64,000 bases of DNA from Candidatus Heimdallarchaeum aukensis (GTDB lineage: Archaea > Asgardarchaeota > Heimdallarchaeia > Heimdallarchaeales > Heimdallarchaeaceae): the NCBI GenBank assembly GCA_021513695.1, contig CP084166.1:2272001-2336000 (forward strand). Reading direction: 5' to 3'. A program made the translations under genes and the position numbers. The notes beneath the pieces were generated by a model, which had not been told where the DNA came from, searched no databases, and saw only the letters and a program-made list of their open reading frames with translations. Of this stretch, positions 57,848 to 61,609 are shown piece by piece; position 1 is the first letter of the stretch; each line of letters starts with the position of its first letter.

Positions 57848-58504
57848 CTATCTAATGTATATCTCTCTAAATTTCAAAACCTTTTCTTCACTTTGGATAG
57901 CTAATCTTGCAGCATGAGAAAAAAGTTTTTCAACATTTTCAGATGATAATGCAGATGTTTCTATATAATCAAAATTATTTTCTTTTGCATATTCTTCTGC
58001 TTTTTCTCTGTCTACAGCTCTTGCATTTTTTAGATCACTCTTATTTCCACATAAAATAATTGGAATTTCTGAACATTTTTTCTTTATTTCACTAACCCAA
58101 AAGGATACATCATCAAATGTTGACGTTTTAGTAATATCATAGACTACGATAGCAACTTTAGCTCCTAGAAAATATTTTTGTCTAACAAATCCAAAAATTT
58201 CTTGAGCTCCTGTATCCCATAAACTAATTCTAACATTAACATCATCGGTGAGTATATTTTTAGACAAATTTTCATTTAATTCGTCCTTTGTTAAGGAAAG
58301 ACTTTTCGTTAACCAACTCACACCCATTGTTGGGATATAAGAATATGAGAAAGTGTTCATAGCATATCTTCTTGCCAATGATGTTTTTCCTACAAAAGCT
58401 GAACCAATTGTTATAATTTTATACAAATGTCGTTCTATCATTTTTATCTCCAAAATATTTCTATTAGTTTTCTTTCTATGTTGATACTGCTTAAACGCCT
58501 CCAA
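57848..58504 (-). CDS. Rab/Ras-like small GTPase (eukaryote-like)
   Basis: G1 GSAFVGKTS; switch I YIPTMGV; G3 LWDTGAQE; G4 GNKSDL; G5 ETSAL. Confidence 0.8.
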   Translation of the reverse strand: MEAFKQYQHRKKTNRNILEIKMIERHLYKIITIGSAFVGKTSLARRYAMNTFSYSYIPTMGVSWLTKSLSLTKDELNENLSKNILTDDVNVRISLWDTGAQEIFGFVRQKYFLGAKVAIVVYDITKTSTFDDVSFWVSEIKKKCSEIPIILCGNKSDLKNARAVDREKAEEYAKENNFDYIETSALSSENVEKLFSHAARLAIQSEEKVLKFREIYIR

Positions 58505-59292
58505 TCATCGAGAATCAAAGGCTTTGTATTCGTATTGATTAATTCTCTAAACTGTTCTGGTTCAAAATACTTACTAGTGATATCAACAAATTCTGAAATG
58601 AAATTAAGGAATGTCTCCTTTATTTGGCTATAATCTTCAATTTCTGTTATTTCTGTTGAGTTTACTTCATCTCTTATAAAGAACCCTTCTTTGTCAAAGA
58701 AAAATAACTCGTCAATTTTTTTGTAATCATTTATTAATTTATTAACATCATTTCTTAGTAACTGATTAATTTTTTTCCTTTTCGATTGATCTTCCACAAC
58801 TTTTTGTATTCCTGAACATACTGAATTTATTATATTCTCAAATATTTCTAATAAATTTCTGAACTCAATATCTTTGATGTGATTAGATATAATAGCGTTC
58901 ACTTTGAAAACTTCGGAAATCACCATAGATGGCGATAAGGGTTTTTTTACTTGTTTAATTTCATCAAGGAAATTTTTAGCAGTTTCTTTATCATAGATGT
59001 CAAAAGAGTATAGAAAGAGATTCATTAAAAAGAATAATTGAGAATACGCCATTCCTTCTTTTTGCTCTTGGGAGATTAGTACAAATATGAAATCATACTT
59101 CTTTTCAACTAAAACAATTGTTTTCTTAAAAATTATTTCTCTTAATGGTCCTAATTCTCTTTGTTCTCCCATCTTTATGAATTTTAATAGTTCCGCAAAT
59201 TGGTCAGGTTTAAGAATTAAATTTTCACTATTAGGCGTGTCTGTAAAGATAGTATCGTAGTTATTTTTGTTGAGTATGTAAAAATTAACCAA
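58444..59292 (-). CDS. Hypothetical protein with an N-terminal longin/roadblock-like domain; candidate partner (GEF-like?) of the adjacent Rab-like GTPase
   Basis: 282-aa ORF whose 3' end overlaps the GTPase start by ~60 nt. N-terminal beta-beta-alpha-beta-beta pattern (IIFKKTIVLVEKKYDFIFVLIS). Confidence 0.35.
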   Translation of the reverse strand: MVNFYILNKNNYDTIFTDTPNSENLILKPDQFAELLKFIKMGEQRELGPLREIIFKKTIVLVEKKYDFIFVLISQEQKEGMAYSQLFFLMNLFLYSFDIYDKETAKNFLDEIKQVKKPLSPSMVISEVFKVNAIISNHIKDIEFRNLLEIFENIINSVCSGIQKVVEDQSKRKKINQLLRNDVNKLINDYKKIDELFFFDKEGFFIRDEVNSTEITEIEDYSQIKETFLNFISEFVDITSKYFEPEQFRELINTNTKPLILDDWRRLSSINIERKLIEIFWR

Positions 59293-59419
59293 TTAGTACA
59301 CCTTTCTATAATTACTTTTAAATAAATTTAAACTTATTCCTTCTTTAGATTCTGCGTTAACTTTGCCAGTTTCTATTTTTCTTCTATAAATTTTAAAAAG
59401 TATAAAAAAAGATAGAAAC

Positions 59420-61609
59420 TTATGTAAAACCTATTCTCGGACTTGTAGATAATTGCGTAGTTTTCTTGAATCTTTCTGCAACTTTATCATAATACTTGAG
59501 CACATCTGGAGTTACAGTAGGATGGATGTTTTTTAGTGCTTCCTTGAAATGTGCAGCTTTTACTTTTGTTGCGTTAAAGTCTTCTCTAAGAGCTCTCATA
59601 CCAGCTTCTCTGCACAGAGCCTCAATATCACTTCCTACAAATCCATCTGTTACTTCTGCAAGTTCCTTGATGTTAACATCTTCAGCTAAAGGCATATTTT
59701 CAGTATATATCTTAAATATCTTTTCTCTTCCCTTTTTGTTAGGTGGTTTGATATATATTAATCTGTCAAACCTTCCTGGTCGTAGAAGAGCTGTATCAAC
59801 CATGTCCGGTCTATTTGTTGCAGCTAAAACTACAATGTCTTTTAATTCTTCTAGCCCGTCTAATTCTGTGAGTAGTTGGCTTATTACTCTTTCAGTAACA
59901 TTACTATCACTTGACATTCCTCTTATTGGTGTTAGAGAGTCAATTTCATCAAAAAATATGATTGATGGAGCAGCCATTCTCGCTTTACGAAATACCTCTC
60001 GTATGGCTTTCTCTGATTCTCCTACCCATTTTGATAATATTTCAGGACCTTTAACACTAATGAAGTTCGCTTCGCTTTCTGTAGCTACTGCTCTTGCAAT
60101 AAGTGTTTTTCCACATCCTGGAGGACCATAAAGTAATATCCCTCTTGGTGGTTTAATTCCTATTTGTTTAAATGCTTCAGGATGAGTCAAGGGCCATTCA
60201 ATTGCTTCTCTTATCTCTTCTATAACTTTATCCAACCCACCAACTTTAGAAAATGGAACGTTTGGTGATTCAATAAATACTTCTCTCACGGCTGTCGGTG
60301 TTATCTCTTTTAGTGCATTAATGAAATCTTCATGTGTAACTTCTAGTTTATCTAAAATCTCAACTGGGATTTTCTCCTCATTTAAATCGATTTCTGGAAG
60401 AACTCTTCTTAATGTTTTCATTGCACTTTCTCGGCATAGAGCTTCAAGATCTGCTCCAACATAACCGTGTGTGACATCAGCTAGGGCTTTTAAGTCAACA
60501 TTTTCAGCTAAAGGCATTCCTCTTGAATGAATTAAAAGAATTTCTTCTCTGCTGTCTCTATCTGGAACATGGATCTCAATTTCTCTGTCAAACCTTCCTG
60601 GTCTTCTAAGTGCAGGATCAATAGCGTTTGGTCTGTTTGTTGCTCCAATAACAATTACTTGTCCTCTTGATACTAATCCGTCCATTAGAGCTAAAAGTTG
60701 TGCAACAACTCGTCGTTCAACTTCACCAGTTACATCTTCTCTTTTTGGAGCAATGGCATCTAACTCATCAATGAAGATAATGCTTGGAGAGTTGTCTTCT
60801 GCGTCTTTGAATATTCCTCTCAATCTTTGTTCTGATTCACCATAAAATTTACTCATTATCTCCGGCCCATTTAATACAATAAAATGAGCTGCAGATTCAT
60901 TAGCTACTGCTCTTGCAATAAGTGTTTTTCCACATCCTGGAGGACCATGTAGTAACACTCCTTTTGGAGGATCAATGCCTAATTTCTCAAATAATTCTGG
61001 ATGTTTTAAGGGAAGTTCAACCATTTCCCTTATCTTCTGAATTTCAGAATGTAATCCTCCTATGTCCTCATAACTTATTCGAGGACCTCTTTTTTCTCCT
61101 TCGATAACTGGTTTTTCTGCTACCTTTAATTGTGTGCTCTCTGTTACTACTACTATTCCTTGTGGAACAGTTGAAACAACACTGAAAGGTATTGCTCTTC
61201 CTAAAATAGGAATTAAAACAGTATCTTTTCGTGATAACGGTTGTCCTAATAATTTACGTTTAACGAAATTTTCAAAACTAAAGTCTATATTAACAGACAT
61301 CGATTCAGGAGCTAAAGTTACTTGTCTAGCTACACTTACCTGTGCCTTTTTTACTACAACTTTATCTCCTAAGGATACACCAGCATTTCGCCTAATTACT
61401 CCGTCCATTCGTACAATTTCTTTTTTTAGATCTTCAGGATAAGAAGGCCAAGCTACTGCTGTTGTTTTTCTTTTTCCTGTGATTTCTACAATATCTCCTG
61501 TTGATACCCCAATTTTAGACATTGCTACGCTGTCTAAACGAACTTTTCCTCTGCCTACATCTCTCTGTTTAGCTTCAGCTACTCGTAATACTATTTCCTT
61601 TTCGGCCAT
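59420..61609 (-). CDS. cdc48: CDC48/VCP-like AAA+ ATPase (two AAA modules plus an N-domain)
   Basis: Double Walker A (GPPGCGKT x2), Walker B DELD/DEID, SRH regions, and a CDC48 N-domain (VGRGKVRLD). Confidence 0.9.

Follow-up and report, generated by a model that had tools for sequence, protein, structure and literature searches.

The locus and the question it raises

In the genome of Candidatus Heimdallarchaeum aukensis, a gene that is labelled 'hypothetical protein' in every source lies between a gene for the AAA+ ATPase CDC48 and a gene for a Rab-like small GTPase. It is called gene X here, and the question is what kind of protein it encodes and whether that protein acts on the GTPase. The window referred to below is the whole stretch of DNA analysed (64,000 nucleotides; assembly GCA_021513695.1, contig CP084166.1, positions 2,272,001 to 2,336,000). 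It has a G+C content of about 32%, and all coordinates are window positions. The initial annotation suggested that X has an N-terminal longin/roadblock-like fold and overlaps the GTPase gene by about 60 nucleotides, and that the two could form a cassette of a GTPase and its guanine nucleotide exchange factor (GEF). The fold and the pairing on which this idea drew have stood up to analysis; the overlap has not.

By analogy with characterised systems, X is most likely a cognate regulator of the GTPase, acting through a longin platform. The explanation that we favour on balance is that X and the GTPase form a translationally coupled two-gene unit, composed of a Rab-like switch and a cognate longin partner that most likely promotes nucleotide exchange. 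In this explanation X, with its single longin domain, would be an archaeal relative of the tri-longin Rab exchange factors (Mon1-Ccz1, BLOC-3 and Fuzzy-Inturned), corresponding to the first of their three longin domains.

Gene X and the GTPase gene are a conserved pair

The genes at the centre of the locus are as follows.

58444..59292, minus strand: gene X, 282 residues, hypothetical protein (TTG start at 59292, stop TAA at 58444-58446)
57848..58441, minus strand: Rab-like GTPase, 197 residues (ATG start at 58441, stop TAG at 57848-57850; based on the Pfam Ras match and the conserved junction)
58448..58451, minus strand: GGAG Shine-Dalgarno sequence for the GTPase, inside the final X codons TGG AGA (based on the conserved junction)

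One genome per GTDB species was scanned using the GTPase alignment as query, and an orthologue was found in 24 species. X lies directly upstream of it at all 22 genome loci that have upstream DNA. A metagenome scan added 16 orthologue loci, some of which are probably duplicates of the genome loci, and the same arrangement is present at the 15 of these that have upstream DNA. By comparison, 37 genome loci of remoter Rab-like paralogues were inspected, and none has a Heimdall-type X or a CDC48. The adjacency of X and the GTPase is thus found at 37 of 37 orthologue loci, and it recurs with homologous partners in distant Asgard lineages, as described below.

The overlap, in contrast, is an artefact. 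It arises from the longest open reading frame (ORF) of the GTPase, which begins at a TTG at 58504 and would run 61 nucleotides into X, whereas an ATG at 58441 lies 2 nucleotides past the X stop codon. This ATG is almost certainly the true start, because of its position, the GGAG ahead of it, the starts chosen by gene callers in relatives (at the equivalent ATG, giving proteins of 195-197 residues) and the conservation of the junction. Counted from this ATG, the Ras domain starts at residue 8, just as it does in ordinary Rabs. An in-frame ATG was identified at 23 loci, and every one of them has the pattern TGG AG[A/G/T] TAA/TAG, followed by 2-5 nucleotides and ATG; at two others, L020 and L027, the scripted junction search found no in-frame ATG. 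The GGAG is kept even at loci where X ends in Ser instead of Arg. A junction this tight suggests that translation of the two genes is coupled, with the ribosome-binding site of the GTPase lying within the last two codons of X.

X contains a longin domain followed by a helical domain

No family in Pfam or NCBIfam reaches its threshold with X. When 1.8 billion representative proteins were scanned in full with HMMER, the family amounted to only 8 clusters at 50% identity, with lengths of 189-293 residues; its alignment shows a conserved length and 12 invariant columns. X is the fastest-evolving gene of its neighbourhood, at 28-32% identity compared to 84-92% for CDC48 and 56-71% for the GTPase. 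At locus L003, for example, the X orthologue is about 31% identical to that of the window (CDC48 92%, GTPase 71%), with the length and about a dozen residues fixed.

A structure for X was predicted with AlphaFold using an alignment of 11 sequences, including members at 24-32% identity (a shallower alignment of 5 sequences at 83-100% identity gave an unusable model, with a predicted local distance difference test score, pLDDT, of 48.9). The resulting model has a pLDDT of 79.6, and a predicted template modelling score of 0.56, which leaves the relative orientation of its domains uncertain. Two domains can be distinguished.

58951..59292, minus strand: X residues 1-114, longin domain (β-β-α-β-β-β-α-α)
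58447..58902, minus strand: X residues 131-282, helical domain with one β-hairpin at residues 197-206 (AlphaFold model and alignment)

The predicted elements of the first domain are strands at residues 2-8 and 14-17, a helix at 29-44, strands at 52-55, 58-65 and 68-75, and helices at 79-96 and 102-114. In the model this domain starts with strand β1, has no N-terminal helix and ends with two helices, which is the longin topology. A Foldseek search of the PDB agrees: each of the top 50 matches is a longin or roadblock protein, with Mon1, HPS4 and Inturned, which are subunits of Rab exchange factors, at the head. The fold first suggested for the N-terminal part of X is supported by both the predicted structure and the structural matches.

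Residues 116-132 are disordered in the model, and the remainder is helical apart from the single hairpin. The polar residues of X that are most strongly conserved are located outside the longin domain. One face of the helix formed by residues 131-165 carries the conserved residues H138, R145, N146, E149, N153 and N156, to which can be added E263-W264-x-R266 near the C-terminus; R266 is invariant and R145 nearly so. The helical domain has no matching Pfam family or PDB sequence, and comparison of X with PDB chains, as single sequences and as profiles, gave only chance matches, to CSN7b and an interferon.

Two more specific identities were considered for X and rejected. A fusion of a longin domain with TRAPPC3 is known from Heimdall archaea (PMC10933270). 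The C-terminal domain of X is not of the TRAPPC3/Bet3 type, since hhalign gives a probability of 0.04 against human TRAPPC3 and the topology is different. Nor is X a longin SNARE or a Heimdall prototypic SNARE, as it has neither a SNARE or Synaptobrevin match in Pfam nor a transmembrane segment; the published Heimdall prototypic SNAREs carry a transmembrane domain, and a longin domain is not mentioned for them.

A wider family probably related to the first longin domain of Mon1, HPS1 and Fuzzy

The profile comparisons point in the same direction as the structural ones. Across 25 X members, 14 match Fuz_longin_1 (PF19036, the first longin domain of FUZ, MON1 and HPS1), with a best E value of 1.8e-4 and always colinearly. 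It is the only Pfam family matched by more than three members, and the only longin or roadblock family matched at all. Matches of three members to CRAL_TRIO were dismissed as noise, being limited to an N-terminal fragment of 30 residues.

Full-length relatives of X were found among ORFs of approximately 270-280 residues lying beside remoter Rab-like GTPases, which are 35-42% identical to that of the window. These ORFs match the X profile. A second profile was built from five of them (L086, L095, L106, L127 and L131); in a set of 4105 ORFs it retrieves a sixth member, L089, and reciprocally the X family, with E values from 4e-10 to 2.6e-5. When the X family is aligned to all six using hhalign, the probability is 97.4% (E 1.1e-11) over 252 columns, which cover both domains, and we conclude that the two groups are homologous. 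Against Fuz_longin_1 the L106 member scores 29.2 bits (E 1.2e-6), above the threshold of 26.1, and its match extends over positions 4-124 of the 125 in the profile; the L127 member scores 20.1 bits.

The distant relatives also adjoin Rab-like GTPase genes, in several orientations, and for 14 of the 15 the distance is at most about 115 nucleotides. At L106, L127 and L131 the stop codon of the partner overlaps the start of the GTPase (ctATGA), at L095 the gene order is reversed, and at L089 the genes are convergent. All of the partner GTPases have WDTGGQE, and none has the insert described below or a C-terminal Cys. The loci range from 33 to 58% G+C, and one of the proteins has been deposited as a hypothetical protein of 'Candidatus Asgardarchaeia archaeon'; the pair is therefore present in several Asgard lineages.

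A second tier of relatives has only the longin domain in common with X, and matches Pfam Longin, Robl_LC7 or NPR2 instead. It is worth adding that other longin/roadblock-type proteins, which match Pfam Longin, Robl_LC7 or NPR2 and some of which have winged-helix C-terminal parts, are found directly beside Rab-like GTPases at seven loci (L037, L128, L133, L134, L135, L141 and L142). Gene pairs of a GTPase and a longin protein may thus be commoner in Asgard metagenomes than the genome of MK-D1 (Ca. Prometheoarchaeum syntrophicum) suggests.

The partner is a Rab-like GTPase with an unusual G3 motif and no lipid-anchor cysteine

The sequence features of the GTPase are listed below.

58379..58405, minus strand: G1/P-loop, GSAFVGKTS (read off the sequence; A15, F16, V17, G18, K19, T20 and S21 invariant in 18 orthologues)
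58238..58291, minus strand: orthogroup-specific insert of about 15 residues between β2 and β3, TKDELNENLSKNILTDDV (a gap in alignments to Thor-Rab and Rab11B)
58199..58219, minus strand: G3/switch II, WDTGAQE, with Ala at the position of Ras Gly60 (sequence and orthologue alignment)
58031..58048, minus strand: G4, GNKSDL (NKxD) (sequence and orthologue alignment)
57947..57961, minus strand: G5, ETSAL (sequence and orthologue alignment)

The three motifs originally taken as signs of a Rab/Ras protein (WDTGAQE, GNKSDL and ETSAL) are all where they had been placed. The protein matches Pfam Ras (PF00071) with 155 bits against a cut-off of 21.6 (E 1.6e-45), and in the PDB its best relative is a Rab of Thorarchaeota (7EZB, E 2.4e-33), ahead of Rab11, Rab35, Ypt31, Rab6 and Rab5. 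Its sequence is that of a bona fide G domain of the Ras superfamily.

The orthogroup has identities of 56-100% and lengths of 195-197 residues, and all of its members are labelled Heimdallarchaeaceae or Heimdallarchaeota. It is sharply bounded, as scores fall from 228 bits to 128 bits, at which point the matches are to eukaryotic Rab11/25. Kept throughout the orthologue alignment are G1 (GSAFVGKT), Thr38 of switch I, NKSD of G4, SAL of G5 and the catalytic Gln. The insert has a conserved core, LNENL[ST]K.

The Rab family motifs RabF1 to RabF5 of Pereira-Leal and Seabra reportedly read IGVDF, KLQIW, RFRSIT, YYRGA and LVYDIT. Set against this consensus, MGVSW, RISLW, YFLGA and VVYDIT of the window GTPase are partial to good matches, and RabF3 is unmatched (IFGFVR).

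In most of the orthologues G3 is WDTGGQE, and WDTGAQE is confined to the clade of the genus Heimdallarchaeum. The window GTPase, with DTGAQ, thus departs from the DxxG motif by having Ala for Gly, whereas the other orthologues have DTGGQ. Next to this change from Gly60 to Ala there is a second swap, from Ala59 to Gly. In H-Ras, the G60A mutant is mostly in the inactive 'state 1' and its GTPase activity is drastically impaired (PMC4867591).

No C-terminal Cys of the kind needed for geranylgeranylation is present in any orthologue or partner GTPase, and the window protein ends in ...KFREIYIR. Other Asgard Rab-like proteins likewise have no C-terminal Cys motif (PMC10933270). Where the prenylation motif would be, the orthogroup has a conserved basic-hydrophobic tail (57848-57880; L[KQ]FR.EYI-type, consensus LKFRKEYIL), which could be an element that binds a membrane or a partner. 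Since there is no cysteine for a lipid anchor, any membrane contact would have to be made through this tail or through X.

CDC48 and the conserved block around the pair

The neighbour on the other side of X is CDC48, as the initial annotation had it.

59420..61609, minus strand: CDC48/VAT AAA+ ATPase, 729 residues, with N domain, D1 and D2 (TIGR01243, Pfam)
59293..59419, minus strand: spacer between CDC48 and X, 127 nucleotides (oligo-T runs, TATA-like stretch, AGGTG)

The gene lies upstream of X and encodes what is, by its sequence, a standard and highly conserved CDC48/VAT, with 1090 bits for TIGR01243 (cut-off 802.65), Pfam matches to CDC48_N, CDC48_2 and two AAA domains, and identities of 84-99% to its counterparts in relatives. 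It is upstream of X at all 21 genome loci and all 6 metagenome loci that reach that far. At the loci of the distant X relatives it is always absent, and the adjacency is confined to the Heimdallarchaeaceae clade.

Comparison of gene orders points to an ancestral block consisting of genes for a methylase, Fer4_5, CDC48, X, the GTPase, CBS, FrhB, CofE and a TPR protein. At least seven independent breakpoints have occurred within this block, all of them immediately outside the CDC48-X-GTPase trio. For 7 breakpoints distributed over three breakable junctions, the probability that none falls between CDC48 and X is p ~0.06. The window itself is rearranged: the methylase and Fer4_5 genes (3657-4898 and 5539-6465), which directly precede CDC48 in most relatives, are here about 53 kb away from it, and an inversion has changed the orientation of FrhB-CofE-TPR with respect to the trio, with breakpoints exactly at the edges of the trio.

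The spacer has oligo-T runs right past the CDC48 stop codon (59404-59410 and 59395-59399), an A/T-rich TATA-like stretch at 59315-59332, and AGGTG at 59299-59303, which is 6 nucleotides ahead of the TTG of X. In an alignment of spacers from 9 loci, both the T-run behind CDC48 and the AGGTG ahead of X are found repeatedly. Because of these elements and their recurrence in relatives, we infer that X and the GTPase are probably transcribed separately from CDC48, from a promoter of their own. The link to CDC48 is best described as clade-specific synteny, and because of its restriction to the Heimdallarchaeaceae clade it is weak evidence of function.

What X may do to the GTPase

We infer that X binds the GTPase, because every characterised longin/roadblock-GTPase pair does so. 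Less firmly, X is proposed to act as a GEF, because its closest structural and sequence relatives are subunits of exchange factors, and because the GP motif of longins that act as GTPase-activating proteins (GAPs) is absent. In the mechanism that we have in mind, X and the GTPase would be made in near-equal amounts, and X, probably as a dimer, would contact the switch regions of the GTPase through its longin platform and in this way control the nucleotide state of the GTPase, most likely by promoting the exchange of GDP for GTP. The helical domain would provide contacts for dimerisation, localisation or effectors. This domain is specific to the lineage, and in the model it appears to occupy the place taken by longin domains 2 and 3 in the tri-longin factors.

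Several observations weigh against this proposal. X is predicted to have one longin domain and not three, and there is no second X-like ORF in the window or at any locus examined, whereas the known tri-longin exchange factors are all heterodimers. Within the clade the scores for Fuz_longin_1 (14.8 bits for the window X, and about 21.7 for the best of the 25 members) are all below the threshold of 26.1. The switch I Lys that Mon1-Ccz1 reportedly uses in Ypt7 appears to correspond to Ile in the window GTPase. The bacterial precedent for a longin/roadblock partner encoded in an operon with its GTPase, MglB, is a GAP. Finally, there is a possible co-variation between the two proteins. A basic residue just past strand β2 of X (LFC[RK]P) is present at 27 of the 28 loci whose GTPase is of the WDTGGQE type (the exception is L007), and in the distant relatives it is an invariant Arg (R21). 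In X of the WDTGAQE clade it is replaced by Asp, Ser or Thr (59233-59247 in the window, X residues 16-20). The loss of this residue together with the change from Gly60 to Ala would suit a GAP that uses an arginine finger as well as it would a GEF, though it is weak evidence. X and the GTPase may thus have varied together, the indication being a weak one because it comes from a single clade and so from one evolutionary event.

A broader version of our proposal, which we put forward tentatively and regard as possible, is that the Mon1/Ccz1, HPS1/HPS4 and Fuzzy/Inturned families have their archaeal forerunner in the X superfamily, whose members would be single-longin and probably homodimeric GEFs, each encoded together with its own Rab-like GTPase; in the Heimdallarchaeaceae the pair was perhaps also recruited next to CDC48.

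The first rival to be considered is that X is a GAP, with a longin platform that supplies or positions a catalytic residue, in the way that MglB acts on MglA, or FLCN, NPRL2 and SMCR8 act on Rag and Arf. Longins of GAP type have been reported in Heimdallarchaeia (PMC12290439), and the co-variation just described can be read in these terms, in that the basic residue at the end of β2 has disappeared only from L007 and from the clade where the GTPase carries a change that, in its H-Ras equivalent, drastically impairs hydrolysis (PMC4867591). The invariant R266 and nearly invariant R145 are also suggestive. However, a GP motif next to the arginine finger is the signature of the GAP longins (PMC12290439), and no member of the X family has one ahead of β2, within the first 25 residues. 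In addition, the one Pfam longin family matched is of the exchange-factor type, and the co-variation again reflects a single event in one clade. We therefore regard a GAP function as unlikely.

Alternatively, X could be an effector, scaffold or chaperone without catalytic activity, which binds one nucleotide state of the GTPase and might tie the switch to a machine such as CDC48. Longin domains do act in this way: that of SRX binds SRβ-GTP, and the small subunits of AP complexes and COPI sit near Arf1. Stoichiometric co-translation would fit a stable complex better than it would a catalyst, the very fast evolution of X relative to the GTPase is typical of adaptors, and CDC48 and X have stayed together at all 21 genome and 6 metagenome loci that reach that far, despite the seven breakpoints nearby. 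Set against this, the distant relatives have no CDC48 at their loci, the spacer between CDC48 and X contains an oligo-T run as well as a promoter-like stretch, the p value for the sparing of their junction is only ~0.06, and inspection by eye revealed no known CDC48-cofactor motif in X. A non-catalytic role of this kind seems to us rather improbable.

Lastly, the suggestion that X is just one of many Asgard longins and is adjacent to the GTPase by chance, which could draw on the fact that longin/roadblock proteins and small GTPases run to dozens in Asgard genomes, on the location of most of the MK-D1 genes outside operons (PMC10933270) and on the fair degree of synteny of the larger block in Heimdallarchaeaceae, is largely refuted and very improbable, given the adjacency at 37 of 37 loci, the conserved coupling junction, the persistence of the pair in distant homologues from other lineages and in other orientations, and the absence of X beside other Rab-like paralogues.

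Comparison with known systems

The closest counterparts of the favoured GEF pair are the tri-longin GEFs, that is, Mon1-Ccz1 acting on Rab7/Ypt7, BLOC-3 (HPS1-HPS4) acting on Rab32/38, and the CPLANE proteins Fuzzy-Inturned acting on Rab23. Like X they have a Rab-like GTPase as partner, and their first longin domain is both the best structural match of X and its only recurrent Pfam match. They are larger, with three longin domains in approximately 400-600 residues, whereas X in its 282 residues has one longin domain and an unrelated helical domain. They also function as heterodimers of two paralogues, while X is the product of a single archaeal gene in an operon, and its role in exchange is proposed by analogy.

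The MglA-MglB module, known from Myxococcus and other prokaryotes, likewise pairs a small Ras-like GTPase with a roadblock/longin partner encoded beside it, which forms a dimeric platform for the switch regions. MglB, however, acts as a GAP and is of roadblock topology, beginning with a helix, whereas X has the longin topology. The GTPases differ too, since that of the window is not of MglA type and belongs with Rab/Ras proteins such as Rab11, Rab35 and Thor-Rab.

Among Asgard systems, an operon of LAMTOR1-like, Rab-like and DENN genes (bioRxiv 10.1101/2020.10.19.343400) is also a conserved neighbourhood containing a Rab-like GTPase and a roadblock/longin protein, and has been proposed to be an exchange module. 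The X locus has no DENN or LAMTOR-like gene, and X belongs to a different, unannotated longin family. Thor-Rab (7EZB, PMC10933270) shares with the window GTPase the Rab-like core and the absence of C-terminal prenylation cysteines. It differs in having neither the insert of about 15 residues between β2 and β3 nor the conserved LKFR.EYI tail; in the DxxG region it has Ala-Gly where the window GTPase has Gly-Ala, and no cognate regulator has been assigned to it. The GAP longins of the FLCN/SMCR8/NPRL2 type in Heimdallarchaeia (PMC12290439) are, like X, longin proteins thought to regulate small GTPases. They carry the GP motif, while X members do not, and the window X in addition has no Arg or Lys at the end of β2.

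Novelty and significance

Many Rab-like GTPases, and many longin and roadblock proteins including fusions, have been described in Asgard archaea (PMC10933270; bioRxiv 10.1101/2020.10.19.343400). The general concept is therefore not new, since GTPases with longin/roadblock partners, an operon proposed as an exchange module and GAP-type longins have all been documented in these organisms. What appears to be new is the unannotated X family itself, its architecture of a Mon1/Fuzzy-type longin domain followed by a helical domain, and the regularity with which it is found beside a defined Rab-like GTPase. The X family may already be included under a generic longin label in the asCOG tables of Liu et al. 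In the literature searched, coverage of which was incomplete, the MON1/CCZ1 and HPS1/HPS4 families are followed back no further than a stage preceding the last eukaryotic common ancestor (PMC11513930), and no paper was found that links them to archaea.

Asgard genomes encode GTPases resembling Rab, Arf and Rag, and proteins with longin or roadblock domains, each in dozens, and few of these regulators have been matched to a particular GTPase. Matching them is hard because in MK-D1 the genes for GTPases and regulators are generally not in operons (Tran et al., PMC10933270). X and its GTPase are a rare matched pair from an archaeon, kept in every sampled genome of the clade and with homologous pairs in other Asgard lineages. 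Both are small soluble proteins, which allows a direct test of whether an archaeal longin regulates an archaeal Rab-like switch, and in which direction. If the link to the longin domain of Mon1, Fuzzy and HPS1 is correct, it would move the origin of this family of exchange factors back into the archaea, and if X is indeed their forerunner, a cognate pair of Rab and GEF would have existed before eukaryogenesis.

Other features of the window

Two other leads were followed and discarded. The window ORF at 19169-19516 was considered as a relative of X and rejected, as it matches the variable helical region of X by composition alone (14.5 bits). A reading of the locus as a defence system was likewise rejected: X has no PADLOC match, and the GTPase and the TPR protein give only noise.

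The gene convergent with the GTPase (57064-57795, plus strand) encodes a TPR-like protein of 243 residues, which is part of the same conserved block in most relatives. It was considered as a homologue of SNAP, and this was rejected because Pfam SNAP was matched by only one of the five orthologues tested (L010/L007, with 30.2 bits where the cut-off is 25), and the remaining four matched generic TPR models only.

Three large ORFs (27258-28523, 29654-30994 and 31047-32309), with no Pfam family or with weak matches to AMP-binding/Acyl_transf_3, flank a second small GTPase gene in the window, at 29066-29632 on the plus strand, the product of which is Arf-like (Pfam Arf, 65.7 bits).

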